64,000 nucleotides of DNA from Nitrospirales bacterium (GCA_030648395.1 JAUSHW010000201.1:1046-65045); one strand, 5' to 3'; counted from the first letter of the stretch, positions 13,397 to 45,082 are shown. Made by a program: numbers and translations. The notes: generated by a model from the letters alone, not told the origin.

Positions 13397-13397
13397 G

Positions 13398-13538: not shown

Positions 13539-13555
13539 TTCCCGCGCAGGGGATT

Positions 13556-13567
13556 GTGTGCTATACT
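13556..13567 (+). promoter_or_regulatory. extended -10-like box GTGTGCTATACT
   Basis: Lies in the only sizeable non-coding gap of the fibre cluster, about 75 nt upstream of ATG 13644. Confidence 0.4.
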
Positions 13568-13643
13568 CTGAAGTAACTCAGACGTCGTTCACTTCTTAGT
13601 TTTCCTTTACAACGGAACACCAGTCACGCAGGGAGGAATCCCC

Positions 13644-14072: not shown

Positions 14073-14114
14073 ATGCCAGGAGCAGATCAACCAGGAATGC
14101 AGGAGGATTAAGTC

Positions 14115-17036: not shown

Positions 17037-17044
17037 GGGGAAGA

Positions 17045-19504: not shown

Positions 19505-19713
19505 TCGACTTTGCTGAGAGCGATAAGCAGTCCGCCACCTGGCGGAAGATGAAGGCGTACCTCAAGGAACTCCTCGAGAGACGACGGGGGGAACTGGAGT
19601 TGAATAAGACGCCCGAGGAGACCGAACGCCTACGCGGGCGTATCGCGGAATTGAAGCATCTCATGAAGATGGATGAGGACCAGGTCATTGAGGATTTATT
19701 GCCGCCTGCTTAA
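19501..19713 (+). CDS. hypothetical helical protein (70 aa)
   Basis: ORF track. ATGA overlap with the portal stop. Confidence 0.55.
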   Translation: MIDFAESDKQSATWRKMKAYLKELLERRRGELELNKTPEETERLRGRIAELKHLMKMDEDQVIEDLLPPA

Positions 19714-19776
19714 GAGCATACGGCCACGGAGCTCCCCCACGCTTACCACGCCGGGGAGGGGAAGGATCAGGACCCT

Positions 19777-20679: not shown

Positions 20680-20699
20680 GCGCATAAAGGAGATCGACC

Positions 20700-21779: not shown

Positions 21780-21809
21780 GTGACGGTCTAACGAAAGGAG
21801 GACCTTCAC

Positions 21810-22310
21810 ATGATTGATACGGTGACACGGTGGCTGGAGGCGTTTGGCGACAAGCGCCACCAGACCGCTCTGAATAAAACGCTCGGCGCGATTGCGGACC
21901 GACTGTCCTGTCAGATGACGGGGACGGCTGGGCTGGTCATTAAGGCGGGCGGCAGTGCGCTGGCGATGTCCAGCGCGACGGTGGCGGCGCACGGGATCGT
22001 GCAAGGGGTCCCGGTCACGATTGCCACCAGCACGGATATGCCCGCGCTGGTGGGGACGATCACGGCCGGGTCCTACAACATCTTCGCGTTCTTCATCGAC
22101 CGCGCGTCAACCCTGACGGTGGCGATGGGTACGGAAGGGACCACGCTCGCGCTGGTTACATTCCCTCCGATTCCGGAGGGGAAGGCGCTCGTGGGTTACA
22201 TCACGGTCACCTACGCGTCGACCTTCACAGGGGGCACGACGCCGTTGGACACGGCCACGACCAAGTACATCAGCGTGGTGGGGGCCTTTGACCCCAGCAT
22301 TCTGCCGTAA
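21810..22310 (+). CDS. hypothetical capsid-associated protein (166 aa)
   Basis: ORF track. GAAAGGAGG RBS. Position suggests a decoration or head-completion role. Confidence 0.55.
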   Translation: MIDTVTRWLEAFGDKRHQTALNKTLGAIADRLSCQMTGTAGLVIKAGGSALAMSSATVAAHGIVQGVPVTIATSTDMPALVGTITAGSYNIFAFFIDRASTLTVAMGTEGTTLALVTFPPIPEGKALVGYITVTYASTFTGGTTPLDTATTKYISVVGAFDPSILP

Positions 22311-23464: not shown

Positions 23465-24172
23465 ATGTCGGTCCTCTACCCGGAGACGTTCCTTGACCTG
23501 GTCAAGCGCACCTTCATTGAGTGCGGCTGTTCAGGGGAGGCCCCCACGACGGTCGTGGGGGTCACGGGCGAAGCCTCGCGTGTGACCAACTGGGTCTCCT
23601 CGGCCTGGCTGAGTCTGCAGCAGGTCCATGAGGACTGGCAGTTCCTCGAGGCGTCCTTCTCGTTTGCCACGACCGCCGGCCAGGCGACCTATACACCCGT
23701 CCAGGCGGGGATCACCGCGGGGACGTTCGGGCAATGGAAGACCTGGGACGACCTCCCGCGGAACTATCTGACCGCCACCGGGACGGACGACGAATTTGAA
23801 ATGGACGAGGTGAGTTTCGACGCCTGGCGGGCGCTCTACGACTTTGGCGCACTGAAAAATGTGCGGACACGCCCGGTCGTATTCGCGGTGACGCCGGCGA
23901 AGTCGCTCGCGCTGGGACCGTACCCCCTCGTGGGCTATACGGTCACCGGGAAATACTTCACGGCGCCCGTCTCCATGAGTCTCGACGCGGACGTCCCGAC
24001 CCTCCCCCGGCAGTATCTCCTCGCAATCGTGGGCGGCGCGATGATGGAATACGCGGCCTTCAAGGCGTCCTCGGAGGTCTACCAGCGCGGCAAGCAGTGG
24101 CACGACCAGTATGTCGGACGTCTTGAGCACGCGCGTCTGCCGAGAATGCAATCGGGAGGCGCCCTCGCGTGA
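23465..24172 (+). CDS. adaptor / tail tubular protein A-like (235 aa)
   Basis: Call from position and size only: it precedes a ~700-aa protein downstream of the capsid gene, as gp11/gp12 do in T7-type phages. Confidence 0.4.
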   Translation: MSVLYPETFLDLVKRTFIECGCSGEAPTTVVGVTGEASRVTNWVSSAWLSLQQVHEDWQFLEASFSFATTAGQATYTPVQAGITAGTFGQWKTWDDLPRNYLTATGTDDEFEMDEVSFDAWRALYDFGALKNVRTRPVVFAVTPAKSLALGPYPLVGYTVTGKYFTAPVSMSLDADVPTLPRQYLLAIVGGAMMEYAAFKASSEVYQRGKQWHDQYVGRLEHARLPRMQSGGALA

Positions 24173-27239: not shown

Positions 27240-28067
27240 ATGGGCGCGGCGCAACAAGTCATTCTCGCGGGCGGGGCGCCGAAGACGTACGACATGCTGG
27301 TCGTGGCTGGCGGGGCCTCCGGCGGAAGCAACGAGGCCGGCGGCGGCGGGGCCGGTGGGGTTCATAACTATACTACACAGACGCTCGTCGTGGGTGTGGG
27401 CTACGCCGTCACGGTTGGCGCTGGCGGTGTGGGCGTTACGAACGCGAACGGGAACCCTGGGACGAATTCGGTATTTGCTGGCACGTCCACGCTGACGGCA
27501 GGCGGGGGCGGATACGGCAACGGGGTCCTCGGAAACGGCGGCGCGGGAGGATCTGGCGGTGGTGGCGGCGGCACGACGGCCACGACCGGGGGTGCCGCGA
27601 ACGGCAACGGAACGGGCAACGCGGGCGGCGGCGGCACGCTGGATACCTCGCGTGTCGGCGGCGGTGGCGGCGGGTACACGGCCGCTGGACAGACTGCGAC
27701 GACGAATGGTATTGGAGGGAACGGCGGAGCCGGTCTCACTCTCGACGCTACGACCGCCGGCTTGTCGTCATTTAGTGGCATGACCGTGGTCGCATCGGGC
27801 GGCGGGGGATCTGGAAATGTGACCCCCGGGACCGGTGGAACGGGGGCCGGGAATGCGGTGTATGCCGGCGGCGGCGGGTCTGCCACCTCGTTTGGTTCTG
27901 GCGGGGGCGCGAACGGAGACGGCGGGTCTCCCAGCGGCGCGGGCAAGGCCGGCGTCGTCGTCGTCCGTTATGCCGGCGCGCAGTCCGCGACCGGCGGGAA
28001 CGTGATCACCACCACGGGCGGATTTACCTACCATGTGTTTACGAGCAACGGAACATTTACGCCCTAA
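27240..28067 (+). CDS. glycine-rich domain protein (275 aa)
   Basis: Runs of GGGGxG and NGNG. The ending GKAGVVVVRYAG...GGFTYHVFTSNGTF is typical of phage glycine-rich fibre-module proteins. Confidence 0.65.
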   Translation: MGAAQQVILAGGAPKTYDMLVVAGGASGGSNEAGGGGAGGVHNYTTQTLVVGVGYAVTVGAGGVGVTNANGNPGTNSVFAGTSTLTAGGGGYGNGVLGNGGAGGSGGGGGGTTATTGGAANGNGTGNAGGGGTLDTSRVGGGGGGYTAAGQTATTNGIGGNGGAGLTLDATTAGLSSFSGMTVVASGGGGSGNVTPGTGGTGAGNAVYAGGGGSATSFGSGGGANGDGGSPSGAGKAGVVVVRYAGAQSATGGNVITTTGGFTYHVFTSNGTFTP

Positions 28068-29499: not shown

Positions 29500-30543
29500 A
29501 TGCCCGACGCGCAAGGAAATCTTCTCCCCGGCGAGGCCGGCTATCAGGCTCCGGGCACCGGCCTGCTCAACTCCACGCCAGGCCAGACGAATGTGACCCC
29601 CGGGGCGCCAATCGTCAACTACACGCCCGCGCTCGCGGAGCCCAAGGCCGCGACCGCGACGGGCTATACGCCCACACCCTACGGCGTCGCACCGAAGCAG
29701 ACGGTCGCTGAGCAGGTCAAGACGATCGTCGGCGAGGACAGTCCGCTGATGCAGCAGGCGGCCACGCGTGCGAAGCAGACGATGGTGGACCGTGGGCTGC
29801 TGAATTCGTCCCTGGCGATTGACGCCGGTCAGAACGCGGTGATCGCCCAGGCCATGCCCATTGCCACGGCCGACGCCGCGACGTACGACCGCGCGGCCAC
29901 GAATACCGCCAATGCCGAGAACGCCTCCAAGGGTATCCTCACGCAGGCGACCAACACGGCCGAGCTACAGAACGCGAACGCGGCGACGAGCGTGGACGTC
30001 TCGAACGCCGGGAATATCAATTTTGCGCTCAATGTGGGCGCCACGGCCGCAAACACCGCCGCGCTCAACAAGGCCCTCGCGGGGATTGACAACGAGGTTA
30101 AACTCCAACTCGGCACGCTCGACGCCCAGAATCGCCAGCTCCTGCAGACGAACGCCAACGCCGCGAATATGTACCAGGAGACGGTCAAGAACATTGCCGC
30201 TATTGCGACCGATCATACGATCAGCGAGGAGGCGAAGAAGACCGCCACGGCCACGCAGATGAATCTCCTGAACGAGGGCCTGCGGACGACCGCGGCCGTC
30301 GCGGCCACCGCGCAGGCGGCCGTCAGCGCGCTGGATCTGAGCTCCTACTTCCAGGACACGAGCGGGAGCCTCTCGGGCTCGCAGACGATCACCCCGGGCG
30401 GCACCTTCGCCGGCCAGGGCGGGCAGAAGTACGCCACGCAGTCCGCCGCGGACAATAGCTGGCCGCGGCCGGCGGATCTTGGGCAGGCCGGGCATCCGTA
30501 TCACTTCGTGGCCGGCACGGGCTGGGTCGCGGGGGCCGAGTGA
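29500..30543 (+). CDS. internal virion/ejection-type protein (347 aa)
   Basis: Ala/Thr/Asn/Gln-rich and low-complexity helical. Position between the lysis cassette and the giant ORF. Confidence 0.5.
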   Translation: MPDAQGNLLPGEAGYQAPGTGLLNSTPGQTNVTPGAPIVNYTPALAEPKAATATGYTPTPYGVAPKQTVAEQVKTIVGEDSPLMQQAATRAKQTMVDRGLLNSSLAIDAGQNAVIAQAMPIATADAATYDRAATNTANAENASKGILTQATNTAELQNANAATSVDVSNAGNINFALNVGATAANTAALNKALAGIDNEVKLQLGTLDAQNRQLLQTNANAANMYQETVKNIAAIATDHTISEEAKKTATATQMNLLNEGLRTTAAVAATAQAAVSALDLSSYFQDTSGSLSGSQTITPGGTFAGQGGQKYATQSAADNSWPRPADLGQAGHPYHFVAGTGWVAGAE

Positions 30544-31011: not shown

Positions 31012-32016
31012 ATGCCTGTCTTTACCACCGCCGCTGTTGCGGTCGCCGCTGCCGTTGCCTCAACGACAGCTATTACGGTTGCCGCGGCCGTAGTTGCCGT
31101 CTCGGCCGCCATTGGTGTCGTCGGCCTGGCCCTGAGTGTCGTCGGGGCGATTACGGGCGATCAGACTATCAGCAAGATCGGGAAGTACATGGGCTACGCC
31201 GGTATCGCCGGCGGCCTCGCGGGCGGGGCCATCGGCGGCATTGGGGCCCTGAGCGCCGGCGCCGAGGGGGGCTTCCTGGCCGGGGCGACGAAACCATTTG
31301 AGACCGTTGCCTCGCTGACCGACCAGGTGTGGAAGAACTACGGGGAGCTGAATCTGTTCACCGGGACGACCTCCATCGCCGACCAGGCCTCGGCCGTCAA
31401 TATCACAAGCGGCGCCGTACCGATGATTCCCGCTGGCACAGGGGAGGCCGGGGCGGGTGTCTTGAATTCACCACCTCCGCTCATCACGGATCAGGCGGCA
31501 ATCGGCACGCATGAAATCGAGCAGGCCGGACAGACGGCCGGACAGACGGCCGGACAGGCGCCCGTCAACCCGCCGCCCGCTGCCGCGCCAGGGGCCCCGA
31601 CGGTTCTTAATACGGACGCCACGACACGCGGAGGCATTCTCAATACAGGAGCTAATCTGACCGTCGGAAATCCCGCGGGCGTGCCAGGGGCGACGAGCCT
31701 TCGCGAGATTACAGCCTCGCCTGGCGGCTTCTTGAAGTGGTTTAATGAGCAGGACGCCTTCACGAAGTACGCCGTCATGCAGGGAGGGGCAGGCCTTGTA
31801 ACGACGGCCGGGAGCACCTTGTCGGGCCTCTACGCGTCCGCCAACGAGAGCGATAAACTCAGGTTTGAACAGGAACGGCAGTCCTTTGTCCAGGCCCAGC
31901 AGGCGGTAATCAATCAGCGTACGGGGACGGCCCCCTCGGTGACGTTCGACAAGCGGCGCGCGGTGGCGGATGCCAGTGGGCGAGTCATTCGCCCGGCCGA
32001 TATGCTGGGCGCATAA
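31012..32016 (+). CDS. membrane-anchored internal virion-type protein (334 aa)
   Basis: The N-terminal ~90 aa are Ala/Val/Gly-rich hydrophobic helices. Contains a 3x12-bp tandem repeat at 31525..31560 (AGQT AGQT AGQA). Confidence 0.55.
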   Translation: MPVFTTAAVAVAAAVASTTAITVAAAVVAVSAAIGVVGLALSVVGAITGDQTISKIGKYMGYAGIAGGLAGGAIGGIGALSAGAEGGFLAGATKPFETVASLTDQVWKNYGELNLFTGTTSIADQASAVNITSGAVPMIPAGTGEAGAGVLNSPPPLITDQAAIGTHEIEQAGQTAGQTAGQAPVNPPPAAAPGAPTVLNTDATTRGGILNTGANLTVGNPAGVPGATSLREITASPGGFLKWFNEQDAFTKYAVMQGGAGLVTTAGSTLSGLYASANESDKLRFEQERQSFVQAQQAVINQRTGTAPSVTFDKRRAVADASGRVIRPADMLGA

Positions 32017-32563: not shown

Positions 32564-33526
32564 ATGAGTCGAGGACTATTAGGCGCACTCAGCGGATTTG
32601 GACGGGGGCTCGAGAAGGTCGGGGAGCTCGCCGGGAAGACGGCCTCGGAGGGGTTTCTCCTGAGCGAGCGGGCGAAGTACGACGAGCTGCGGGATACGCG
32701 GCATGAGAAGTACCAGGTCGCGCGCGAAGAGCTCGCTGAGGGGCGTGCCATCGCGCGCGCAGACGTGGCCGAGGGGCGTGCCGTGGCATCCCAGGGGCGA
32801 GTGTTTGCTCAGGAGCAGGATCGTTGGACGGCCCAGCTCTGGTCGGCCGAGGGGATCAGCGAGGCAAACCGTAAACAGTTGGACGAGCACTTCAAGGCCA
32901 CCACGGAGCATCAGAAGGGGGTGCTTGCCCTGCAGAATCGACAGGTTGATCTCAGCGAAGCACAACTCCGACAGAATGGGACGAAGACGCTCGAACTGAA
33001 GGACGGAACGATTGCCATCTACTCCGTGAACGGCGGGAAGGCAAAGGTGCACGGGCTTCTACTCGGATCGGACGAGAAACCACTTCGTCTCAAGGCGACC
33101 CTCTCAGACGTTGAGAAGTCGCAAATACTCTCCCTCAGGGAGGAGATGACCCACACGATCGACGCGGCCAAGGCCCCCTCGTCGATGGGATGGAGCGACA
33201 CGCAACGGGCTGAGAATAGCGCCCACGTCTCGGAGCTGCAGAAGAAAATTCAAGCCTTTGGCGAGCCGGCGGCTCCCGAGAAGGCCGCGGCGCTCAAACT
33301 TGCCAGTCCGGCCCAGGCGGCGCAATACCGCAAGCAAAATGCAGGCAAGAGCGAGGCCGAACTCAAGGCCGGTGCTGCGAAGGCAGGCTATACGCTCCCG
33401 CCGCTCACACCGAGCGGCGATATACTCAATTCAGGACCCCTTGCTTCGTACACGCCCGCGGAACAGGCTGAAATTGATTCAGCCTACGAGCGCCTGAAGC
33501 AAGGACGCGCCAGCCAACTCCCGTAA
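32564..33526 (+). CDS. coiled-coil protein (320 aa)
   Basis: ORF track. Charged helical repeats (AEGRAIARADVAEGRAVA). Confidence 0.55.
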   Translation: MSRGLLGALSGFGRGLEKVGELAGKTASEGFLLSERAKYDELRDTRHEKYQVAREELAEGRAIARADVAEGRAVASQGRVFAQEQDRWTAQLWSAEGISEANRKQLDEHFKATTEHQKGVLALQNRQVDLSEAQLRQNGTKTLELKDGTIAIYSVNGGKAKVHGLLLGSDEKPLRLKATLSDVEKSQILSLREEMTHTIDAAKAPSSMGWSDTQRAENSAHVSELQKKIQAFGEPAAPEKAAALKLASPAQAAQYRKQNAGKSEAELKAGAAKAGYTLPPLTPSGDILNSGPLASYTPAEQAEIDSAYERLKQGRASQLP

Positions 33527-36500
33527 ATGGGAGACCTCAACCTCAGCGCCTTTGAGACGCCCACAGCCGAACCGGCCGAGGGATTGAATCTCTCTGCCTT
33601 TGAGCCGGCGTCTCCGCCATCCTCGTCCGACGTGCTCCGTGGCGCCACGACGGCCATCAAGCAACTGCCTCAGCTTACCTACGGCCTCGGCGCCGGGTTG
33701 ATGGCGACCAGTCAATCCCTCAAAGAATTTGTCGGGCAAAAATACAGCGGCTACGCGCCGCAAGCTGGCGAAACGACCTTCGATAGCGATCAGCTTGTGA
33801 AGGAGTACCTCGTTGGAAAGTCTCGCGCCTGGGGCGAGGAAATTGCCAAGGAGACAAAAGCGACTGATTCGTTGGTGACGGCGTATGAGCGTGCAAGCGA
33901 GGGGGATTATGGTGCGCTCGTTGATTGGATGCAGTACGGCATTGGATACGGCGGCGTGCAGGTTCTTCAAATGCTCGGCAGCGCAGGCGTCGGCTCCGTG
34001 TTCGGGAAGGCGGCCCTGAAGGAAGTAACAGCCCAGACAGCGGAGCGATTGGTGACGAAAGCCTCCATCGGCCTGGCGGCCGAATCGGGTGGAAAACTCA
34101 CCGGCGAGGCGTTGACGAAAGCTGCGGTTGAACAGGTCGCCTCCAAGATCGGACAATATACAGCCCTCGCCGCCACGGCCACAGGCATGGAGGGCGGTGA
34201 GATTCTCGGTGGAGTGGCCGAGCAATCTGTTGACGAAGGCCGAAGCCTTCGGGGAGACGAACTGGCAAAAGCGTGGGGTGCAACCCTTGCAGCCGGCGCG
34301 CTCGAGTTCGTGGGCGACAAATTCGGCCTTGATCTCGTCACCGGGAAGATAGGGAAGTTTGCTGGAGCGAGGGGGCGGCTCGCGCGCGGAGGCATCCTCG
34401 GGGCCGCCGACGCGGGCGTCGAGAGTGGGACGGAGTTTACTCAGACGCTCGTGGAGGAGGCGGGAAAGGGGCACGATCCATTTACGCTGAAGGCGGTGCG
34501 TGACGCCATCGACGCCGCAGGCCTCGGCGCGATTATGGGAGGCGTCGTCGGCGGGACATCGGGCGCGCTGACCCCCTCCGCCCCGCCGTCTATTACCGGT
34601 ACCGTCCCCCCACTGCCTAAGAGTGGAACTGGAGAAGAGCCGCCGCCCGAGCCTCCTATCATTCCGCCCGACGCGGTTGAGGCTGCGACGGCGTCAATCG
34701 TCCCTCCGCTTCCTGGCATTCTGGATCTGACGCGCGAGCGCGACGACGCGAAGCTCATCGTCCAGGAGATCGCCGAGCGCGTCAATCATCTCGAGTCGAT
34801 TGGTTTGGGCGTTCCGAACTTTCTCCGCGACGAGTTAGAGGCGGCAAACGAGCGCTTCCGCAATCTGAAGGCCGAGCAGGCGACCGTCGTGGAGATTCCG
34901 ACGTCCGTCCTCGCGGCGCCGGATGTCGCGAGCGCCATCACGCAGGCCCAGGCCTTCGTTGACAACCGACCCGCAGCCCCTGCTGGGGAGAACCTTCCAT
35001 TCAGCCGCAGTGAAACCTTTCAATCAGCCTTGGAGTCCCACATTGGCTCCGAGGCCTACACGGAGGCCACCCATGCCGGAGACCAAGCCGCCCTTATTGC
35101 CGCCGTCCGCAACGCCACCGGCTTTGACGACGCCGGGGGGCTCCCCACCCTGCACGGCCTCCCCCTCCGCGCCGTTGCGCCCGAGAGGTTGCCTGACACC
35201 GCTGATACGCCGGGGCAGCTCACACGAGGTCAGTACGACGCCGCCAATCTCTTCCTCGGACTCTTTGGTAAGCGCGCCGTAGTCTTCGAGGACCACCCAG
35301 CGATGGCGGGGTTTGTCGCGCCTGAGGGGGGCGATCAGTCGATCGTCTTCCTCGGCTCGCGGAGCGAGAGCCATCCGCTGGCCGTTGTCGCCCACGAGCT
35401 CGGCCATCTGCTCGAGGGCACGGAGGCCTATCGCGCGTTCCAGGCGGTGCTCCTCGAGAACCTGGACCCGGAAGCCAAACTGGCCGCGCGCGAGCGCCAC
35501 ACGACCGCCAAGACGGACCTGGAACTCTTCAACGAAATCTCCGCGGACGTGAAGGGCGACGCCATGACCGATCCCGCGTTCATGACGAAGCTCGTGGCGC
35601 GGATGCGGGAGAAACTCGGGGACGAGGAGACGAAAGTTCAGGCGCGTACGTTCCTGGACGTCATCCGCGACGTTATTGCGAAGTTTACCGAGCGCATTGG
35701 GATCCGTATGTCCGACGACTACCTGCCCTATATCACGAACCTGGAGAAGATTCACGACGCGCTCGCCATAGCCGTCGCGGAGGCGTACCTGAAGGGCACG
35801 ACGCCCACCGCTGAGAAGGGGAAGCTGAAACTCTCAGAGCGCCAGACCGGTGAGGGCGCGCGCGAAGTCGTCCATCCGGAGGCGGTGGAGAAATTCAGCG
35901 GGCTGGCGTCCGCGCAACGCGATAAACCAGAAGCCGCTATGCTCACGGTACAGATGACCCACGGTGGGGGCGTCCTCAATCCGGTCGTGGAGCACGTCGG
36001 GGATCTGACCCACCGGATGTCGCACCACGCACGGCACGGCACCGCGTACCGCGCCGAGGTGGCGTCGAAGATCGAGCGCGCCCTCGCGGCCCTCACGCAC
36101 CCCTACGGCTTCGAGAAGGAGCACGCGGAGAACCTTCGGAACAACGCCCGCGGATGGACGAAGGAAGGGAAACCCATCTCCACGGCGGATCTCCGCAAGG
36201 CCGTCCACGCCGCCATGGACGAGTACGCCGCGGAGCACCGGAAACTCTCCGTCTACAACCTCCCGCAGTGGCTTGCGCGCGAGGCGGCGGTGGCTGTGGG
36301 CGAGCGGCGCTGGGACGACGCGATCCGACGGCTGAAGGAACTCCACGAGATCGTGAAGTCTGCGGACTACGACCGGCAGGCGCTGGCGGTGAATAGGGAC
36401 AAAAAGGGGACAATTCTCACCTTCGAGGAAATTGGCGAGGTCCTGACGGACGCGGAGAAGCTCGCCCAGCAGAAAGTTTCGTCAGAAAAAGAGACCATTT

Positions 36501-39500
36501 TATCTGACAACGACCTTACCCCCAACGGCCGGCAGGACGATGGTAAGGGCGGTGGATTTGACCTCTACACCACCACTCGCGAACTGCCGGTCTTGACGAA
36601 GAACGACCTCTACCCGCACGCCGCGATCCCGAAGGGCGGGACCGTCAGCCGGCAGACGCTCGAGGCGAGCGGCTATCGGCTAGCCGACGATTTACTCAAT
36701 TCATTGAGTAAGATTCAACTCGCCCCTCGCAAACACCCGGAGCACAAGCGCACCTCCGAGGGGAAGTACGTCGGCGCCCCGCCGGCCGTCGTGAGCCCGG
36801 CGAAGCTCACGAAGCTGCGTGAGATTCTGAAGGGGCTCGCGAAGGAGGGAAAGGCCGGGCGCTTCTGGCATGAGAAGTCGAGCCACGCCATCCTCGATCT
36901 CGCCGAGGGCAACCGGAACCTCGCTGAGAAGATTGTCGGCCTGATTGCGATCTACAGCCCGCGGCAGGGGATCCTCGGGAATATGACCTCCGCCCTGACC
37001 GCCTACTACCAGTGGGCGAACGGCAAGCCGATCACCACGCCCGGACGGAGTGGCCTCGAGCCCGCGTACCGCGCCGAGGCGTGGATGCACGAGAGCGCCA
37101 CCGAGGAGACGATCACTGGGATCAAGCGCTCCAACTTCTACAAGAACCTCATGCGCGTCATCAACCCCGCGGCGCTCGGCACCGAGGCCCAGGGCGTGAC
37201 GGTGGATATGTGGATCGCCCGTGCGATGGGGTACTTCAAGACCACCGTCGGGAAGGCCCAGTATCTCTTCACCGAGCGGGAGATCAAGCACCTCGCGTCG
37301 ACCCTCGGGTGGGAACCGCAGCAGGCCCAGGCCGCCGTCTGGGTGGCCGTCCGGAGTCGGATACAGGCCCCGGTCGAGCGGGACGGGGTGATGACGACCC
37401 TCTATGAGGCGACCCGGAAGGACGCGGTCACTCGCGGATGGCTCGAGAGGGTCACGAACTACTCCAAATCCGGCCAGGCCTATACGCACCACAAGGCGGT
37501 CGACGCAGAGCGCGGGCGCGCCTTTGAACGCCTCCTCCTCCAGCGGGCGTTGAAGCTCGATTCGGTCGAGATCGACAGTCTGGACTTCTCCGACGCGCTC
37601 AAGCAGCGCACCGCGCAGATCTCCTGGGAGGCCACCCCCGGGAAGACGTCCCTCATCCTCCCCGGCATCCACGGCGCGACGCTCGGCCAGCAGGCGGAGT
37701 ATCTCGCCGCGGTCGACGCGGCCTTGCGGGGGGATTATGGACAGGATCTCATTGCCGAGAAGTTGAACCTCGCCGGCGCGAACACCATCTTCGGCCCCGG
37801 GGCCTGGCAGGGGAACATCACGGTCGGCGCCCAGACGCGGACGGCCATCGGACTCCAGACGGACGCCGACGGTCTTCAGCGCGTCTCGGACGACGCCCGT
37901 GCCCTGATCAACCTCTATGCCGATATCCGCGGCTATACGATGAGCCAGGAGGGGGTCTATTGGGCCTATCCCTTCTACGAGGAGACGAAAGCCAAGGCGA
38001 ACGGCGTCCGGCTCCTCTTCGGCCGCGCGCTCGATACGACAGAAATGGGTAGCCTCTATCGGGCCATTATGGACGTCGCCGGGCATGACGAGTGGGCCCC
38101 GGCGTACACGGAGGACGGCGCGTTTATTTTGAATTTCAAGACCGAGGATCATCTCGCGTTTCAGAAGACGATTAAAGAGGCGGTCGGCCGACTGCCGGAC
38201 GAACTGTCGGCCACGATGAAGACCTTCCGCTCGGACGGCGACGCGCGGATGAATGATTGGAAGGAGTCCCCCCATGGCGAGAGTTATCGAGAGCGGATCG
38301 GTGCCGAAGGAGGACCCGATGTTCTCCAGTGGAGTGCGGATCTACGGCAAGCCGTCGTTGGCGTCAACGAGCACTTCAGCGAGCGATACGACTGGGGGAA
38401 TCCCGGAGAAGCCTACCCCGAAGCCGCTGAAGTAGAGACCCAGCAGACGGACGTCAGCCCGAGTACCGGGCACGATATCCGCTTCGCCCCGCGGAACTTC
38501 CCCGTCGCCTACCAGCGCATGGCAGACGAGTACGACGCGGCACCCGTCTTGGATAAGGCGGCCATCCCTGCGTGGAACGCCCTGCGAGATGATACCGCGC
38601 GGCGCTACAAGGAGATCCTTCTCAAGGTCCACGTCGAACGGGTCACCGGGCAGCCTTACACGGACGCAACCAGTATGATCGCCGACATTGCGAAGGGCTC
38701 GTTCAAAGTCACCACCGATTACAGTGAGCACCCGGTCTGGACCGTCGAGGAAAATGTGCAGTTCCGCGTGGTGCACGATTACCTCGGGCACTTTAAGACC
38801 GGGTATGACTTTAGTCTCTATGGCGAGCAGCGCGCCTACGCCGCCCACGCTGAGTTGCTGACAGACCCGCTGGCGAAGCAGGCCCTCAAGGTCGAGGTCT
38901 ACGGGCAGGCCGCGGCAGCCGTGTCACACGACGGCGTCTTCCAGGTCCAGAAGATTTTCCTCCCGAAGCCGGACGTTCGTAATTTTGACGCCGAGTGGGC
39001 CGCGCAGAGTGGCGGCCAGAAAATGGCCGAAGAACGCGGTCTCAACATGACCGGCAACGAGTACCTGACGCGTATTGAACGTGCTCGGGCGACTGGGATA
39101 GGGCAAGGCCGGCTGCCTAGAGACATCCGCTTCGCCCCCCGCGACGCGACGCCGCCCTACGGTCTGAAGACGCTCCCCAAGGGCGCGAAGGTGCCGCGGG
39201 TGCAGTGGGATAAGGATGAACTGCGCGAGAACGAGGACGCCCTGCGGGACGATTACGCCCAGACCGGCCCGAACGAACTCGAGCACACGATCTATCCGAC
39301 CGTCTACCGTGCTTGGGTGCCAATGGATGACGTGCCGAGGGCCCGCATCGCCGACCGCGCGCAGGATCGCGCCAAGGGTGGATACGACTGGAGTGAATAT
39401 AAAAAGACCGGGGTCTTCCCGCCGGTGACCATTCAGCTCCACCCGAACGGCGTCGCAACCTCCCTCGACGACGGCAACCATCGCGTGCGCTATTGGCGCG

Positions 39501-42500
39501 AGCACAAGTTTACGCACGTCCCGGCCTGGATTGTCGACTTCCGTCCGGACAGCCCTGCCCGCCCTGGGACGCTCGCGGAGTACAAGAAGCAGCACCCGGA
39601 ACTCAAGTTCGCGCCCCGTAAGCAGCCTGTCTTCTACTCCGCGCTGCAGAAGGTTCTGAGCGAGCGGATGCCCGTCTCCGCCTCGGGTGAGCAGGTGAAG
39701 GGGATCCTGAACGCCCCGGGCGTGAAGCAGGACGAGATTAAATGGTCCGGAGTCCTGGACTACCTCGAGGCGCGGAAGCTGAAGACCATCTCGCGCGACT
39801 CCCTCCTTGCCTGGCTCAAGAAGAACGAGGTCAAGATCGTCGAGGTCATGAAGTCCGGCGAGAGCGCGGAGGATCTGCCGTCGCTGCAAGAGTTTAAACG
39901 CGACTATTACGAATCAGAGATCGTGCCCGAGGATCCGTCGTATATCGAAGAAGAAACAACGCGGCTCCGGGATATGCGGCGCCAGGATCTGGAGATCGAG
40001 GGCGGCTATACGACGGAAGAAATTGAGGACGAGGTTTCCAAGATCGAGTACGAGCAGGACGACTACGCTAGCGAGCAAGAAACCCGGCACCGGACGTACC
40101 CCTTCCGCATTCTCGGACGCGAGGTGGAGTTTAAAGTGAGTGTCTACGACGATGTCGTCCCTATGACAAGCGGGAGGAAAGCAAAATTCCTCGGCGATCT
40201 CAAGAAGGATGGGACGCTCGAAGAGGACGGCTACGGGCCCGCCTTCAACCGGTTCTCTGAGGCCAACGAGGCAGCCTACGAATACTTCGTCGGGAAGGCC
40301 AAGGCACAGGCCGAAGAGAGCGCCCCCAAGTACCCGGGTTCCACGCTCAAGGGGCCGAATACAGATTATCGGGAGTTGCTGCTGACGTTTGAGCCGGCAT
40401 TAGCAAAGACCATCGCCGAGCGCGCAAAGAAACTTCACAATACACTGATGGGCATCCACAATCAGATTGCGGCCGCGAAGGATCCAGGAACGACGAAGAA
40501 ACCCTCTGTTGAAGTGCTGAACCTTCAGCGGGATGCCGATCGTATCCGTCGTGAAATTCAACTTGCGCGCGAGAAAGAGCCGTCAAAATTTACCTCCTCC
40601 CACTGGGACGAGGAGAACATCCTCGCGCACATTCGCTACGACACGCGGACGGACGCGGCCGGGAAGCGGACGCTGTTTATCGAGGAGATCCAGAGCGATT
40701 GGCATCAGAAGGGGCGGGAGGAGGGGTACACAAAGGACACGACAGGCTGGACAGCAAAATCCCTTTCCGAACCAGAGGCGGGATTTACATCATGGGAAAT
40801 TCACGACGCCGCCGGCAACTATATTACGGGAATCGTTGGCGGCAGCGAAGAATCCGCTATTCGCAAAGCCGCAGAAGGCGTCCCCCAGGCCCCCTTCTCC
40901 AAGTCCTGGCACGAGCTCGCGCTCAAGCGGATGCTCCGCCTCGCGGCGGACGAGGGCTACGACCAGCTCGCGTGGACGACCGGGCGGCAGCAGAATGAGC
41001 GGTATCGGCTGTCGAAGTATGTTTCGAGGGTCGTCTATGATAACGGCATCCTCAACGCGAGTGATTTAAGTGGGCGAAAGGTCTTCGCGGAAGAGGTAAG
41101 CGAGAATGATCTTGCCAAGCATATTGGGAAAGAGGCCGCAGAGAAACTTATTGCGATGACTCCCGACGAAGACGGTCTCAGGATTCTCGAAGGCCTCGAC
41201 CTCGAGATCGGCGGCTCGGGCATGGTGGGCTTCTACGACCAGATGCTCCCGCGGTTCCTCGACAAGTACCTCAAACGGTGGGGCGTGACAGTCGGGACGG
41301 CGGTGTTTGATTTTGTGCCAAGTGGCCAGAAAAAGCTCTATAGTACGCCATCACAAAATGCGGCAGGGGTTGCCCACGCCATCCCCATCACAACGGAGAT
41401 GAAGGCCTCCGTCCAGGGCGAGTCCCAGCCGCAGTTCGCGCCGCGCTCGAAGCAGACCCAGACGCCCGAGTTTAAGAAGTGGTTCGGGGACAGCAAGGTG
41501 GTCGACACCCAGGGCTCGCCTTTAGTGGTGTATCACGGGACGACGAACGCGGCCGCTATTGCCCAATTCGAGTTAAGGGGCGAGGCCGCGGCATTTCACT
41601 TTACAGCAGATCCTGCGTACGCGTCTAAATATGCCAAAGGAATTACGAGCGCCGCAAAAGCGGGTAATGAAAGATCTGCCGCGGTGCTCCCTGTTTATTT
41701 GAAAATTGAAAATCCTTTCTTTACATGGAAAGGGACGGACACTTATTTTTTAAGTCCAGAAAAGATCAAGGAACTCGCTAAACATGGTTTTGACGGCGTA
41801 ATTCAAAGCGTATTGCTCGCTCCTCCTAACCCTGTAAACCACGCGAGGGCTGTAGAAACAGCAAGTGAACTTGTCGTCTTCTCCCCCACCCAAATCAAAT
41901 CCGCCACCGGCAACCGTGGCACGTTTGACTCAGAGAATCCCGATATCCGGTTTGCGCCGAGGAAGGCAACGCCGCCGTACGGCCTACGCGAGGATCAGCT
42001 CCCTCATGGTGCAAAGGTGCCGAACGTGGATTGGAATCAGGAAGACCTCGTAGCAGGTATAGGGGAGTTGAGGAGACAGACGCCGAAGACACTTGCAAAG
42101 GGATACGAAACTATTTATTCCGGGATCTACGGTGTCAGAAAAGGTTTTACACCAATCGTCTCTCGCGCGTTTGTTCCTGTCAATCGCGTGCCAAAAGAAC
42201 ATATTTCCTATGAAGACGAGTATATGGATGAGTACGATTGGCAGTCTCTAAAAGACGCGGCGACGCTCCCGCCGGCAACCGTCGTTCTGTTTAATAATGG
42301 CCCGAAATTACTCGAAGACGGTAATCACCGCGTCCGTCATTGGCGTGAAGAAGGGATGACCCATATCCCCGCGTGGATCGTCGACTTCCGCAAAGGCGCC
42401 AAGCCGGTCTTCGCCCCCCGCACCGCGCCCACCTATACCGTCCCCGAGCCGACACGGACCGACAAAGTTCGGCGCGTGCTCCAGGACAAGAATATCGACA

Positions 42501-45082
42501 TTGCGAAGTTCGTCGCGGCCGTTAAGGAGACCGTCGCCGATCTGCACGATGACCTGAATCCCGTCCTGCACGAGGAGATGTTCCACGCCCGCGCGGCCCA
42601 GGCCACGACCGACTTCCTGACCGATGAACTCGAGCCGCTGGTGAAGGACCTCGCCCTGCGCCAGGGGACCCAGGGCGGCCTGAACGCCTACCTGCACGCG
42701 CGCCACGCCGCGGAGGCCAACGCGCGCCTGAAGACGCTCAATCCCAAACTCGAGAAGAACGAGGCCCTCTCGGGCATGTCCGACACGGAGGCGCGGACGA
42801 TCCTCGACGATACCGCGAACGACAAGTACGCCGCCCTTGCGCTCAAGATCGACGCGATCGTCAACAAGACCCGCGACCTCATGGTGAGCTACGGCCTGGA
42901 ATCCGAGGCCCGTGTCGCCGAGTGGCGAACCCTCTACCAGCACTACATCCCGCTTCGGCGCGAGGGGCACGAGGAGGAGGGGATCCCCACCGGCACCGGG
43001 CGCTCCGTCCGCGGCTCGATGGTGAAGGAGCGCCTTGGATCCACCGCCGCGGTGGACGAGATCCTCGGCAATCTCGCCCTGGCGCGCGAGGCCACGATCA
43101 CCCGCGGCGAGAAGATGCGCCCGGTCATTGCAATGGCTGGCCTCCTGATGGCGCACCCCAACAAAGAGATCGCGCACCTCGCGAAGCCGGCGCCGATTAC
43201 CATCATGAATCCGATTACCGGACTACCGGAGGTCCTCCCGGGCGACCTCGGGGACTACAAGGTCCCCCGCGTCCGACGGATCGACCCGGCCACTGGGGTC
43301 GTCAAGGAATTCCCCGATCCCACCTATAAGGGGCGTGACAATGTCGTCAACTTCCGGATCAAGGGCGTCGACTACGCCATTATCTTCAACGAACGCAACG
43401 AGCGCGCGATGGAGATCGCGAAGGCGTTCAAAGATCTCGACACCGCCGCGCTGAATATCTACGTCGCGCAGGTCGCGAAGGTCACCCGCTGGATTGCGTC
43501 CGTGAACACCCAGTACAATCCCATCTTCGGGATCATCAACTTCGTCCGCGACGTGCCCTTTGCCATGCTCACGCTGACGAGCACGCCGCTGCACGGGAAG
43601 CAGGTCGAGGTCCTGGCGAACACCGTCAAACTCATGAGCGGGATCTACCAGGATGCCCGGGCCGTCCGTCGGGGGGAGCACCCAACCTCACCCGCGGCGG
43701 CCATGTGGGAGCGCTTCGAGCACGTCGGCGGACCGACCGGCTACCGGGACCTCTTCACCACCGCCGGGGATCGGGCGAAGGAGATCGAGAAGCTCCTCGA
43801 CCCCTCCACGCTCCGCATGGCCTGGAACGCCGGCGGCGGGAAGGCCATCGCCGACTGGCTCTCGGATTACAACAAGACCATGGAGAACGCCGTCCGCCTG
43901 GGGGTCTTTAAGAGCGCCGTCGACATGGGGATCTCCGACATCCAGGCGGCCAGCTACGCGAAGAACATCACCGTCAACTTTAACAAGAAGGGGCAGATCG
44001 GGGCCTTCCTCGGCGCCCTCTATGCCTTCTTTAACGCCTCCATTCAGGGCGTCGCGCGCATTCACGAGACGCTCTTCGAGAAGGACAGCCTGGCCCTCAG
44101 CGCGATCGGGAAACGCGTCGTCGCCGGTGGCGTCGCCCTCGGCGTCATCCAGACGGTCGTCCTGGCGCTGGCCGGGTTCGACGACCAGGAGCCCCCGGAG
44201 TACATCAAGGAGAAGAACCTCGTCGTCCCGCTCCCGGGCGGGAAATACGTGAACATCCCCTACCCGCTCGGCTTCAACGTCCTCCCCTCGATCGGCCGGC
44301 TGACGATGGAGACGTTCATCTACGGGCGTCCTCTGGACCGGGCCTATAGCCTCGCGGCGACACTCGGCGGGGCCCTCTCGCCGGTCGGCGGGGCCGTCAG
44401 TTGGGCCCAGCTCCTGAGCCCCACCGTGACCGACCCGCTCGTCGCCCTGGGGGAGAACAAGGACTGGACCGGGAAGCCCATCTTCAAGGAAGACCGGGAT
44501 GCCCTGGCGCCCACCCCCGGACATAGCCGCCGGCGGGACACGGCGACCCCCTGGGCCATCTTCCTGTCCCGGGCGATCAACTACCTCAGCGGCGGGACGG
44601 AGTACAAGCCGGGGATTGCCAGCCCGACGCCGGACGCGATCGACTACCTCATCACCCAGGCCACCGGAGGCGTCGGCCGGGAGATCTCCAAGACCGTTCA
44701 GGTAGGCCAGGGACTCGTCACCGGAGAGGACGTCCCGGAGTACAAGGTGCCCCTCTACGGCCGTTTCGTCGGCGCGACCGAGGGCCTGGCGGCCACACGG
44801 GGGCGCTTCTACGAGAACCTCAAGCAAATTAACGCCCACGAGCTTGAAATCAAGGGGCGCCTGAAGGCGCACGAGCCGATCGGGGACTACCGCCTCAAGA
44901 ACCCCCTGACGCGGATGATCGACGCCGGCAATCAGACCGAGCGCGCCGTCCAGGAACTCGTCCGCCAGAAGCACCTCATGGTCAGGCAGGGCGCCTCGGC
45001 CGAGAAGGTCCGCCTCATGGAGGAGCGGATCGGGGCCATCATGGGCCGGTTCAACGCCCAGGTCCAAGCACTTAGTAAATAA
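33527..45082 (+). CDS. giant multi-domain 'polyvalent' virion protein (3,851 aa)
   Basis: Single uninterrupted ORF whose ATG lies immediately after the upstream TAA. Contains HELGH, two DGNHR ParB-like modules, a WFGDSKVVD..VVYHGT module, an IEEIQSDWHQ module, and a C-terminal TM region with PLYGRFVG (PLxRFG-like). It occupies the T7 gp16 / N4 gp50 position. Confidence 0.9.
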   Translation: MGDLNLSAFETPTAEPAEGLNLSAFEPASPPSSSDVLRGATTAIKQLPQLTYGLGAGLMATSQSLKEFVGQKYSGYAPQAGETTFDSDQLVKEYLVGKSRAWGEEIAKETKATDSLVTAYERASEGDYGALVDWMQYGIGYGGVQVLQMLGSAGVGSVFGKAALKEVTAQTAERLVTKASIGLAAESGGKLTGEALTKAAVEQVASKIGQYTALAATATGMEGGEILGGVAEQSVDEGRSLRGDELAKAWGATLAAGALEFVGDKFGLDLVTGKIGKFAGARGRLARGGILGAADAGVESGTEFTQTLVEEAGKGHDPFTLKAVRDAIDAAGLGAIMGGVVGGTSGALTPSAPPSITGTVPPLPKSGTGEEPPPEPPIIPPDAVEAATASIVPPLPGILDLTRERDDAKLIVQEIAERVNHLESIGLGVPNFLRDELEAANERFRNLKAEQATVVEIPTSVLAAPDVASAITQAQAFVDNRPAAPAGENLPFSRSETFQSALESHIGSEAYTEATHAGDQAALIAAVRNATGFDDAGGLPTLHGLPLRAVAPERLPDTADTPGQLTRGQYDAANLFLGLFGKRAVVFEDHPAMAGFVAPEGGDQSIVFLGSRSESHPLAVVAHELGHLLEGTEAYRAFQAVLLENLDPEAKLAARERHTTAKTDLELFNEISADVKGDAMTDPAFMTKLVARMREKLGDEETKVQARTFLDVIRDVIAKFTERIGIRMSDDYLPYITNLEKIHDALAIAVAEAYLKGTTPTAEKGKLKLSERQTGEGAREVVHPEAVEKFSGLASAQRDKPEAAMLTVQMTHGGGVLNPVVEHVGDLTHRMSHHARHGTAYRAEVASKIERALAALTHPYGFEKEHAENLRNNARGWTKEGKPISTADLRKAVHAAMDEYAAEHRKLSVYNLPQWLAREAAVAVGERRWDDAIRRLKELHEIVKSADYDRQALAVNRDKKGTILTFEEIGEVLTDAEKLAQQKVSSEKETILSDNDLTPNGRQDDGKGGGFDLYTTTRELPVLTKNDLYPHAAIPKGGTVSRQTLEASGYRLADDLLNSLSKIQLAPRKHPEHKRTSEGKYVGAPPAVVSPAKLTKLREILKGLAKEGKAGRFWHEKSSHAILDLAEGNRNLAEKIVGLIAIYSPRQGILGNMTSALTAYYQWANGKPITTPGRSGLEPAYRAEAWMHESATEETITGIKRSNFYKNLMRVINPAALGTEAQGVTVDMWIARAMGYFKTTVGKAQYLFTEREIKHLASTLGWEPQQAQAAVWVAVRSRIQAPVERDGVMTTLYEATRKDAVTRGWLERVTNYSKSGQAYTHHKAVDAERGRAFERLLLQRALKLDSVEIDSLDFSDALKQRTAQISWEATPGKTSLILPGIHGATLGQQAEYLAAVDAALRGDYGQDLIAEKLNLAGANTIFGPGAWQGNITVGAQTRTAIGLQTDADGLQRVSDDARALINLYADIRGYTMSQEGVYWAYPFYEETKAKANGVRLLFGRALDTTEMGSLYRAIMDVAGHDEWAPAYTEDGAFILNFKTEDHLAFQKTIKEAVGRLPDELSATMKTFRSDGDARMNDWKESPHGESYRERIGAEGGPDVLQWSADLRQAVVGVNEHFSERYDWGNPGEAYPEAAEVETQQTDVSPSTGHDIRFAPRNFPVAYQRMADEYDAAPVLDKAAIPAWNALRDDTARRYKEILLKVHVERVTGQPYTDATSMIADIAKGSFKVTTDYSEHPVWTVEENVQFRVVHDYLGHFKTGYDFSLYGEQRAYAAHAELLTDPLAKQALKVEVYGQAAAAVSHDGVFQVQKIFLPKPDVRNFDAEWAAQSGGQKMAEERGLNMTGNEYLTRIERARATGIGQGRLPRDIRFAPRDATPPYGLKTLPKGAKVPRVQWDKDELRENEDALRDDYAQTGPNELEHTIYPTVYRAWVPMDDVPRARIADRAQDRAKGGYDWSEYKKTGVFPPVTIQLHPNGVATSLDDGNHRVRYWREHKFTHVPAWIVDFRPDSPARPGTLAEYKKQHPELKFAPRKQPVFYSALQKVLSERMPVSASGEQVKGILNAPGVKQDEIKWSGVLDYLEARKLKTISRDSLLAWLKKNEVKIVEVMKSGESAEDLPSLQEFKRDYYESEIVPEDPSYIEEETTRLRDMRRQDLEIEGGYTTEEIEDEVSKIEYEQDDYASEQETRHRTYPFRILGREVEFKVSVYDDVVPMTSGRKAKFLGDLKKDGTLEEDGYGPAFNRFSEANEAAYEYFVGKAKAQAEESAPKYPGSTLKGPNTDYRELLLTFEPALAKTIAERAKKLHNTLMGIHNQIAAAKDPGTTKKPSVEVLNLQRDADRIRREIQLAREKEPSKFTSSHWDEENILAHIRYDTRTDAAGKRTLFIEEIQSDWHQKGREEGYTKDTTGWTAKSLSEPEAGFTSWEIHDAAGNYITGIVGGSEESAIRKAAEGVPQAPFSKSWHELALKRMLRLAADEGYDQLAWTTGRQQNERYRLSKYVSRVVYDNGILNASDLSGRKVFAEEVSENDLAKHIGKEAAEKLIAMTPDEDGLRILEGLDLEIGGSGMVGFYDQMLPRFLDKYLKRWGVTVGTAVFDFVPSGQKKLYSTPSQNAAGVAHAIPITTEMKASVQGESQPQFAPRSKQTQTPEFKKWFGDSKVVDTQGSPLVVYHGTTNAAAIAQFELRGEAAAFHFTADPAYASKYAKGITSAAKAGNERSAAVLPVYLKIENPFFTWKGTDTYFLSPEKIKELAKHGFDGVIQSVLLAPPNPVNHARAVETASELVVFSPTQIKSATGNRGTFDSENPDIRFAPRKATPPYGLREDQLPHGAKVPNVDWNQEDLVAGIGELRRQTPKTLAKGYETIYSGIYGVRKGFTPIVSRAFVPVNRVPKEHISYEDEYMDEYDWQSLKDAATLPPATVVLFNNGPKLLEDGNHRVRHWREEGMTHIPAWIVDFRKGAKPVFAPRTAPTYTVPEPTRTDKVRRVLQDKNIDIAKFVAAVKETVADLHDDLNPVLHEEMFHARAAQATTDFLTDELEPLVKDLALRQGTQGGLNAYLHARHAAEANARLKTLNPKLEKNEALSGMSDTEARTILDDTANDKYAALALKIDAIVNKTRDLMVSYGLESEARVAEWRTLYQHYIPLRREGHEEEGIPTGTGRSVRGSMVKERLGSTAAVDEILGNLALAREATITRGEKMRPVIAMAGLLMAHPNKEIAHLAKPAPITIMNPITGLPEVLPGDLGDYKVPRVRRIDPATGVVKEFPDPTYKGRDNVVNFRIKGVDYAIIFNERNERAMEIAKAFKDLDTAALNIYVAQVAKVTRWIASVNTQYNPIFGIINFVRDVPFAMLTLTSTPLHGKQVEVLANTVKLMSGIYQDARAVRRGEHPTSPAAAMWERFEHVGGPTGYRDLFTTAGDRAKEIEKLLDPSTLRMAWNAGGGKAIADWLSDYNKTMENAVRLGVFKSAVDMGISDIQAASYAKNITVNFNKKGQIGAFLGALYAFFNASIQGVARIHETLFEKDSLALSAIGKRVVAGGVALGVIQTVVLALAGFDDQEPPEYIKEKNLVVPLPGGKYVNIPYPLGFNVLPSIGRLTMETFIYGRPLDRAYSLAATLGGALSPVGGAVSWAQLLSPTVTDPLVALGENKDWTGKPIFKEDRDALAPTPGHSRRRDTATPWAIFLSRAINYLSGGTEYKPGIASPTPDAIDYLITQATGGVGREISKTVQVGQGLVTGEDVPEYKVPLYGRFVGATEGLAATRGRFYENLKQINAHELEIKGRLKAHEPIGDYRLKNPLTRMIDAGNQTERAVQELVRQKHLMVRQGASAEKVRLMEERIGAIMGRFNAQVQALSK
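35393..35407 (+). other. HExxH zincin motif (HELGH) within the giant ORF
   Basis: Context: SESHPLAVVAHELGHLLEGTEAY. In frame (aa 623-627). Confidence 0.6.
39122..39546 (+). repeat. internal protein-level repeat 1: DIRFAPRxATPPYGL + ParB-like DGNHRVR(Y/H)WRE..H(V/I)PAWIVDFR
   Basis: Collinear with 41942..42391. DDGNHR at 39467..39484. Confidence 0.75.
41453..41935 (+). other. ART-like 'polyvalent' module (TPEFKKWFGDSKVVD...PLVVYHGT) inside the giant ORF
   Basis: This motif string is the hallmark I recall for the ADP-ribosyltransferase-like domain of phage/plasmid polyvalent proteins. The region is visibly more AT-rich than its flanks. Confidence 0.5.
41942..42391 (+). repeat. internal protein-level repeat 2 (PPYGL + ParB-like DGNHR)
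   Basis: PDIRFAPRKATPPYGLREDQLPHGAKVPNVDW ... LEDGNHRVRHWREEGMTHIPAWIVDFR. EDGNHR at 42314..42331. Confidence 0.75.

Follow-up and report, generated by a model that had tools for sequence, protein, structure and literature searches.

The 64,000-nucleotide stretch of Nitrospirales bacterium DNA analysed here (GCA_030648395.1, JAUSHW010000201.1:1046-65045; hereafter the window) encodes a giant open reading frame (ORF) in which the tetrapeptide FAPR recurs six times at the edges of successive modules, and it is this peptide, and what it may do, that concerns us. Besides the mutually unrelated Pfam domains DUF7178, ART-PolyVal and LPD38, the giant ORF contains at least four further modules that are defined by homology (Table 1). 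The ART-PolyVal assignment (PF18760) reached 69.1 bits against a Pfam gathering score of 31.2, with tankyrase and PARP catalytic domains as the best, albeit weak, Foldseek matches, and PHROG families of giant phage proteins match residues 2964-3844. An NCBIfam scan of the giant ORF returned no family and megablast against 50,697 phage records gave no match; the 3851-residue protein itself was found at 100% identity (P0157) in a library of 1.84 billion representative proteins. For the major head protein of the window, no exact copy was found in the contig index. The same strand carries, further upstream, genes for a large terminase (8096-9718), a portal/adaptor protein (17045-19504) and a major head protein (20700-21779), which places the giant ORF at the distal end of a podovirus-like structural module. 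Being phage-encoded and composed of unrelated domains that include LPD38, it belongs to the phage polyvalent proteins as described by Iyer et al. 2017 (PMC5512222). Its product is probably a virion-packaged ejection/effector protein, by analogy with two homologs, phi24B gp47 and JC1 gp69, both of which were detected in purified virions by mass spectrometry, where they are abundant (bioRxiv 10.64898/2026.04.10.717836; PMC9144972); an ejection-protein role for gp47 is proposed in the phi24B study.

Table 1. Features of the giant ORF; positions are counted from the first letter of the window, and for each FAPR the first residue is given (aa, amino acids; E, expect value).
Feature	Residues (aa)	Window position (nt)	Strand	Basis and remarks
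Giant ORF, 3851 aa, phage polyvalent protein		33527..45082	+	ORF list, Pfam, PHROG families
HELGH, putative zincin metallopeptidase active-site motif	623-627	35393..35407	+	Sequence motif
LAPR, variant junction	1065-1068	36719..36730	+	Context iqLAPRkh, 5' of DUF7178; sole non-FAPR 'APR'
DUF7178 domain	1107-1278	36845..37360	+	Pfam E=2.9e-10
FAPR-1	1653	38483..38494	+	Context STGHDIRFAPRNF; GHDIRFAPR aligned with P0001 GHPLFSPK
Cassette A, with VHDYLGH	1657-1868	38495..39130	+	Homology blocks; widespread module phrog_3170
FAPR-2	1869	39131..39142	+	Context LPRDIRFAPRDATPPYGL; DIRFAPRD aligned with P0001 DVRFSPQ
'ParB-like' cassette 1, DGNHRV motif	1873-2027	39143..39607	+	47% identity to cassette 2
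FAPR-3	2028	39608..39619	+	Context HPELKFAPRKQPVFYSAL; P0001 peptide TVLFSPGAWFSAL; ELKFAPRK paired with P0001 TVLFSPG; homolog blocks begin 2029-2033
Cassette C, with IEEIQSDWHQ	2032-2636	39620..41434	+	Homology blocks; tail IT-x-x-M-K-x-x-V-x-G-x-x-P-Q-F
FAPR-4	2637	41435..41446	+	Context ESQPQFAPRSKQTQTPEF; QPQFAPRS aligned with P0001 QPLFSP…SFAPQ; P0025 PRFAPAPAENTPEF
ART-PolyVal domain	2660-2800	41504..41926	+	Pfam E=8.5e-19
FAPR-5	2809	41951..41962	+	Context FDSENPDIRFAPRKATPPYGL; conserved C-terminal tail of ART family
'ParB-like' cassette 2	2813-2961	41963..42409	+	Homolog blocks 2805-2961
FAPR-6	2962	42410..42421	+	Context GAKPVFAPRTAPTYTV; junction into C-terminal module
Conserved C-terminal module	2966-3851	42422..45079	+	Homology to phage giant proteins
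LPD38, within C-terminal module	3554-3743	44186..44755	+	Pfam E=4e-34

Translation of the window in six frames confirmed what an earlier reading of this DNA (the sequence-only reading) had reported, namely six FAPR copies, all in the frame of the giant ORF and in the contexts quoted there, and disclosed no further copy. From the residue composition of the giant ORF 0.046 copies would be expected, and in 2000 residue shuffles of the protein the most frequent 4-mer of any kind reached five copies, never six. Two of the modules, labelled 'ParB-like', are duplicates of each other (47% identical), each preceded by DIRFAPRxATPPYGL and followed by FAPR; since two pairs of FAPR sites thus flank a duplicated module, the number of independent sites is at least four rather than six, which is far above chance expectation. 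The shorter string APR occurs in seven places, as six FAPR and one LAPR, against 1.5 expected. The label 'ParB-like' itself, taken from the sequence-only reading, is weakly supported: for the two cassettes Pfam gave no match at E<=1 and a PDB sequence search none, the label goes back solely to the motif DGNHRV, and the structure model of the part corresponding to cassette 2 is of low confidence. It is retained here, in quotation marks, as a name.

Comparison with homologs revealed that the sites coincide with module boundaries. BLAST blocks common to 36 homologs begin at residues 2029-2033, 2639-2649 and 2960 and end at 2807-2816 and 2955-2965, and cassette A is delimited by blocks at 1631/1666-1812/1829 in about 20 homologs and also in mycobacteriophages. 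The earlier claim that every FAPR stands immediately in front of a recognisable module is accurate for these block boundaries, but not for the landmarks by which the modules had been named: VHDYLGH (residue 1749), IEEIQSDWHQ (2385) and YGRFVG/PLxRFG (3744) are separated from the FAPR before them by about 96, 357 and 780 residues, respectively. In P0001, the closest homolog (40% identity), the core F-[S/A]-P is kept at all four shared junctions (4/4) amid a gappy alignment, and between the two proteins it shifts in concert, from A..R in the giant ORF to S..x in P0001. Between LAPR-1065 and FAPR-1653 the giant ORF and P0001 differ by an insertion/deletion of about 580 residues, in a stretch where the local alignment is weak; LAPR-1065 itself aligns, likewise weakly, with AFRK of P0001 at the breakpoint. 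In P0009 the tail of module C (…ITDAMREKVSRDGMPLFSRQATP; …GMPLFSRQATP) continues straight into the C-terminal module, and at the equivalent point of the giant ORF the ART and second 'ParB-like' modules are intercalated, with one FAPR each. Module insertions and deletions among relatives, in other words, coincide with the junction motif. The aligned equivalents of FAPR-6 read PLFSR in P0009, DIRFSR in Bacillus phage Dartukuta, YYSRT in 933W and KFQRQ in the Methanosarcina virus MetMV, and related peptides stand at equivalent junctions of hundreds of other proteins. The homolog blocks, the P0001 cores, the P0009 layout, these equivalent junctions and the starts of ART proteins described below bear out the proposal that FAPR marks cassette junctions; hence, its reading as cassette punctuation is supported.

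The C-terminal module into which FAPR-6 leads has 7966 representative relatives at E<=1e-3 in an exhaustive search, and is common to 933W/phi24B-type Shiga toxin (Stx) phages, to Ralstonia, Burkholderia and Vibrio phages, to Bacillus phage Dartukuta and to MetMV. The MetMV protein (2599-11607) is 3002 residues long, with its C-terminal ~870 residues 37% identical to the module, which thus crosses the divide between bacteria and archaea.

Exact F[AS]PR is absent from 33 of the first 36 homologs, and the relaxed form [FY][AS]P shows no overall enrichment among them (45 vs 38). As raw motif counts were unenriched, junctions were compared in alignments instead, and the census of homologous giant ORFs that had been proposed as a check then yielded a related, conserved tag, mostly as variants rather than as exact FAPR. 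Judging from these sequences, FAPR is this protein's dialect of a more general peptide, aromatic-Ser/Ala-(Pro)-Arg/Lys. The tail …GNxGTFDxxNPDIR[F/Y][S/A]x[R] comes after the domain in 114 ART-PolyVal proteins, and 33 of 133 copies have the strict motif exactly at +7 from the domain end, against a background of ~0.4% per residue; the ART alignment profile has I2807 at 92%, F/Y at position 2809 at 40% and S/A at position 2810 at 52%. Standalone ART proteins begin with M-x(1-5)-QT-xTPxFKxWFG, that is, just past the motif position, and in multidomain proteins [F/Y/L]-[S/A]-x-[R/K] was found 6 to 11 residues before the ART start 16 times, where 2.7 were expected. The family of module C ends in its own form of the tag, …ITxxM[KR]xx[VI]xxGxP[LQ]F[S/A/Q], in P0001, P0002, P0009 and P0021/29. 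Immediately 5' of the C-terminal module (<=45 residues), [F/Y/W]-[S/A]-(P)-[R/K] is present in 71 of 147 related giants (48%, against a background of 8%); its position peaks at -5 to -15, and it occurs irrespective of whether ART, module C, 'ParB-like' or another domain precedes. In 933W p72 the YSxR peptides are located at the start of LPD5, eight residues after LPD1, and between MuF_C and the C-terminal module. The tags of this protein read LYSLR at residue 1074, FYSRK at 1461 and YYSRT at ~1895. The spacing of the tag is fixed from the upstream domain and variable (5-20 residues) to the downstream domain, and the tag is therefore a feature of each cassette's C-terminal edge. A weaker form is also found in megaplasmid and phage-plasmid proteins; a census of plasmids returned nine records with ART-PolyVal, all typed as non-mobilizable.

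Within a single protein the tag tends to adopt one dialect: FAPR in the giant ORF, FSP in P0001, [F/Y]AP in P0025, YSxR in 933W, FMP in P0146, P0117 and P0052, and F[S/A]PK in P0173. In a permutation test from which the giant ORF and tandem ART tails were excluded, the tripeptide of a protein's own ART tail turned up again outside that tail in 15 instances, where 5.6±2.4 were expected, and 1 of 5000 permutations reached as many. Among the 150 closest representatives, six identical copies are unique to the giant ORF, the others having at most three P-containing variants, and the P-containing dialect shows no overall enrichment in this set (79 vs 84). A peptide that is uniform within a protein and divergent between proteins, without DNA identity, is the pattern expected of co-evolution with a single reader, and the dialects accordingly suggest that one reader is shared by all sites of a protein.

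The sites were also examined for their likely accessibility. Single-sequence AlphaFold modelling of residues 1601-2730 gave a mean predicted local distance difference test (pLDDT) score of 38; with an 88-row alignment the ART core reached 85-96, and the second 'ParB-like' cassette and FAPR-6 scored about 30. FAPR-4 was modelled as coil that leads into the confident ART fold, with pLDDT climbing from 43 to 67, and at FAPR-5 the residues D-I-R-F reached >=50 and the model dropped below 50 from P-R-K onwards. All seven sites lie no more than 25-30 residues from a segment in the top 2% of disorder propensity, as 24% of positions do by chance (P ~2e-4 for six of six FAPR sites, on a simple propensity scale), and LAPR-1065 is followed by a top-1% segment. 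Six FAPR and one LAPR at module boundaries beside disorder-prone segments is the site arrangement of a MARTX-like mode of processing.

Several explanations of the tag were weighed. The sequence-only reading had raised the possibility of a recombination-friendly linker, a DNA repeat whose microhomology would serve in-frame shuffling of cassettes, and the module insertions and deletions that fall at the motif among relatives are in keeping with it. However, the 12-nt cores of the six sites vary synonymously (TTC/TTT, GCC/GCG, CCG/CCC and CGG/CGC/CGT/AGG), their 72-nt flanks are 31-53% identical, which is the random level at 63% G+C, and 12 nt is below the length needed for homologous recombination. 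The synonymous differences imply selection on the peptide and not on the DNA, and the insertion/deletion pattern is accounted for if each cassette brings its own C-terminal tail; a DNA-level role is, therefore, very improbable. An origin without function, by chance together with repeated duplication of a single cassette and its flanking sequence, could appeal to the duplicated 'ParB-like' cassette with its two site pairs. Yet the independent sites stand far above the 0.046 expected and none of the 2000 shuffles reached six, DIRFAPRxATPPYGL is perfectly kept though the duplicates are only 47% identical, and the motif is kept in distant relatives at non-duplicated junctions. Statistics and conservation together refute this account, to which we attach almost no probability. 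The tag is real, non-random and selected as a peptide; it lies at module boundaries beside disorder-prone spacers, is conserved in relatives and occurs in protein-specific dialects.

The main rival to cleavage at the tag, the explanation that we favour and set out below, is structural punctuation of a protein that stays in one piece: the aromatic residue would cap the preceding domain and Pro/Arg would open a flexible spacer, allowing the cassettes to fold or refold independently. It agrees with the strong conservation of F-D-P-x-N-P-D-I before the tag in the ART family (I2807 again at 92%), with the step in model confidence between D-I-R-F and P-R-K, with the fixed upstream and variable downstream distance, and with the tag terminating single-domain ART proteins, and the accessible text of the phi24B and JC1 proteomic studies mentions no fragments of the giant proteins (bioRxiv 10.64898/2026.04.10.717836; PMC9144972). 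On the other hand, the same cap is not expected for folds as unrelated as ART, module C, the 'ParB-like' modules, LPD1 and others; the uniformity within proteins, both in the six FAPR and in the dialect test, favours one reader over domain-specific caps, and the concerted switch from FAPR to FSP between orthologs is hard to square with independent packing. On balance, we consider a purely structural role rather unlikely. The per-protein dialects would equally befit a docking motif that co-evolves with a partner other than a protease, be it a packaging or scaffolding factor, the portal (as multivalent head targeting) or a host factor after entry; homologs are packaged in virions, and the small standalone ART proteins that carry the tag would require a head-targeting signal in order to be injected. 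For targeting, however, six copies per polypeptide would be redundant, no candidate partner was identified, protein C-termini at large show no excess of the tag (12 observed, 13.5 expected), and the tag is found in its weaker form in megaplasmid and phage-plasmid proteins. Docking is, in our estimate, improbable.

The reading with the best support is that of a selected tag which closes each module, leads into a flexible spacer and is recognised by a single partner, and cleavage is its most economical function. Cleavage at the tag accommodates these observations best when they are taken jointly, although we put it forward tentatively, as falling somewhat short of an even chance. According to this explanation, the giant ORF would encode a virion-delivered chain of effector cassettes, attached to a conserved C-terminal module of which LPD38 is a part. 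Six cassettes would each end in a selected peptide, here FAPR, followed by a flexible spacer, and this peptide, placed on the C-terminal edge of unrelated domain families, would be a common site of recognition and cleavage at which the polyprotein is cut into separate effectors, either in the head or after ejection. The cutter may be the zincin-type HELGH peptidase encoded in cis, or else some other single protease; both cleavage at the tag and the identity of the enzyme are matters that we infer. Thermolysin-type zincins would be expected to cut just before Phe, as the hydrophobic P1' residue. The notion that a cut behind Phe might imitate the C-terminal tail of SSB (DDDIPF) was entertained and set aside. 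The HELGH motif corresponds to HEALH in the ortholog P0001, and processing by the cis-encoded peptidase, as the sequence-only reading had suggested, is plausible, as the sites adjoin disorder-prone spacers and each protein keeps to its own variant. Indeed, zincin-like metallopeptidases were proposed by Iyer et al. 2017 to process polyvalent proteins, with no site named in the accessible text (PMC5512222). A broader version, in which the tag is the cleavage code of polyvalent proteins at large, protease and junction dialect co-evolve, and the virion delivers a 'cluster bomb' of anti-host effectors that separate after ejection, is possible, and we hold it with greater reserve.

A number of observations weigh against cleavage. 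The HELGH region matches Pfam only marginally (Peptidase_M48, E=0.12, below the Pfam cut-off) and found no match in a PDB sequence search; among the homologs compared, a peptidase of the HELGH type is common to the giant ORF and P0001 only. The motif-bearing P0036, P0022 and P0006 are without HExxH, JC1 gp69 combines HExxH motifs with the C-terminal module but lacks the recurring junction motif, and the co-occurrence of the motif with HExxH or peptidase type across homologs is loose and does not discriminate. Furthermore, short ART proteins of a single domain, from which nothing could be released, likewise end in the motif; the D-I-R-F of the ART family resembles the ordered edge of a domain more than a free linker, and AlphaFold was informative for only two of the six FAPR sites. 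Cleavage of the giant ORF product or of any homolog is not reported in the accessible text of the literature searched. Phage P1 DdrB, which is reported as proteolytically processed (PMC5512222), was considered as a processing control and speaks in the same direction: its sole motif-like site, WFSIR at 547, mismatches the reported product of ~76 kDa. P1 DarB and DarA were tried as processing controls as well and contain no fitting site.

Several further observations concern the giant ORF and its surroundings. Its N-terminus (residues 1-~360, window 33527-34600) contains Gly/Ala-rich hydrophobic stretches, for instance GIGYGGVQVLQMLGSAGVGSVFG, and is conserved in P0001 (37% identity), pointing to membrane-active or helical-bundle segments. 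A second hydrophobic stretch, VVAGGVALGVIQTVVLALAGF, is present in the C-terminal module. On the minus strand, long ORFs of up to 524 residues run antisense to the giant ORF at 36701-38275, 38924-39889 and 43688-45067; such ORFs are expected at 63% G+C and are probably non-coding. Upstream, three tRNA genes (Met-CAT, Gly-TCC and Thr-CGT) are clustered at 7551-7955, just 5' of the large terminase gene, and a 973-residue ORF (14115-17036, plus strand) directly 5' of the portal gene has no Pfam or PHROG match, as is likewise the case for the ORFs at 11024-12562, 24169-26301, 29500-30543, 31012-32016 and 32564-33526. A 275-residue ORF within the structural module (27240-28067, plus strand) matches Pfam Gly_rich_2 (E=2.4e-12).

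Among relatives, another recurring junction peptide, [F/Y]-N-P-x-H-D-E-x-G-R-F-[S/A], is present in three copies in P0032 (residues 40-590) and in one copy just 5' of the ART domain in P0139 (residues ~120-150); it has the core R-F-[S/A] in common with DIRF[S/A]. The 278-kb Pseudomonas aeruginosa megaplasmid p382 encodes, at 6994-21996, a 5000-residue 'LPD23 domain-containing protein' with at least six tails of the ART-PolyVal type (NRGTF/NSGEFD six times, YHGT eight times), several of them in tandem, with very short spacers between them (NILL, NILH, DIRH, NILYSF and DIRYQM).

Polyvalent proteins rank with the largest phage proteins and with the most widespread, and the phi24B study explicitly raises the question of how a protein of this kind is arranged inside the capsid (bioRxiv 10.64898/2026.04.10.717836). 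A conserved junction peptide provides a rule by which to parse these giants into cassettes, a handle on the protease or partner that reads them, and concrete sites for mutation and for searches of proteomic data. If the tag is cleaved, this would be a viral polyprotein in a DNA phage, with each freed module a candidate anti-defence effector, and should the broader cleavage code be true, the 2017 processing hypothesis would become a site-specific mechanism for a family of thousands. If the tag is not cleaved, it would still be a marker of domain boundaries for annotation and for the engineering of modular cargo proteins.

The class of polyvalent proteins and the idea of their processing are already known, whereas the junction tag, its family-wide distribution and the per-protein dialects are not described in the literature searched, where FAPR, DIRFS, DIRYS, IRFSR and similar strings gave nothing relevant. 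The giant ORF resembles the proteins of Iyer et al. (PMC5512222) in being multidomain, with ART-PolyVal, LPD38 and an HExxH region, and in lying in a phage structural module; it differs in its junction motif, as the text of that paper does not contain the word 'linker', and 12 of its 28 keyword passages name no cleavage or junction motif. Its LPD38-bearing C-terminal module is shared, at 24-30% identity, with phi24B gp47, 933W p72 and JC1 gp69 ('DarB-like'), and the genes for the giants of 933W/phi24B-type and Bcep22-type podoviruses likewise stand at the end of the morphogenesis module. In contrast, these giants carry other cargo cassettes, none of them has six identical copies of the tag, and no processing is reported in the accessible text. 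P1 DarB and DdrB are also polyvalent, being anti-restriction proteins packaged in the head, and the HELGH of DdrB is identical; unlike the giant ORF, however, the P1 Dar proteins have no recurring junction motif, and P1, a myovirus, possesses a distinct head-processing function.

Two systems outside this class offer functional parallels. The internal proteins and Alt of phage T4, injected effectors that include an ADP-ribosyltransferase, carry capsid-targeting sequences that are cut by the gp21 prohead protease, so that there, too, a short consensus peptide on injected effectors is read by one phage protease. The T4 motif, (L/I)-x-E, is N-terminal and is found on separate small proteins, whereas in the giant ORF a single polyprotein carries the tag behind each module, on the C-terminal side; T4 furthermore has a dedicated prohead protease, and none was found among the 20 neighbouring window ORFs that were scanned. 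MARTX toxins are cleaved in the spacers between their effectors, at sites made up of a hydrophobic and then a small residue, the cut falling after the hydrophobic one. They differ from the giant ORF product in being secreted bacterial toxins rather than phage virion proteins, with no sequence relationship, in having a cysteine protease activated by inositol hexakisphosphate (InsP6) in place of a putative zincin, and in that their cleavage is demonstrated where that of the giant ORF is only inferred. What MARTX toxins and the giant ORF have in common is the architecture of a giant modular delivery protein, in which a cis-encoded protease, putative in the case of the giant ORF, is combined with a conserved translocation part and variable cargo (PMC2900308; PMC2780291).

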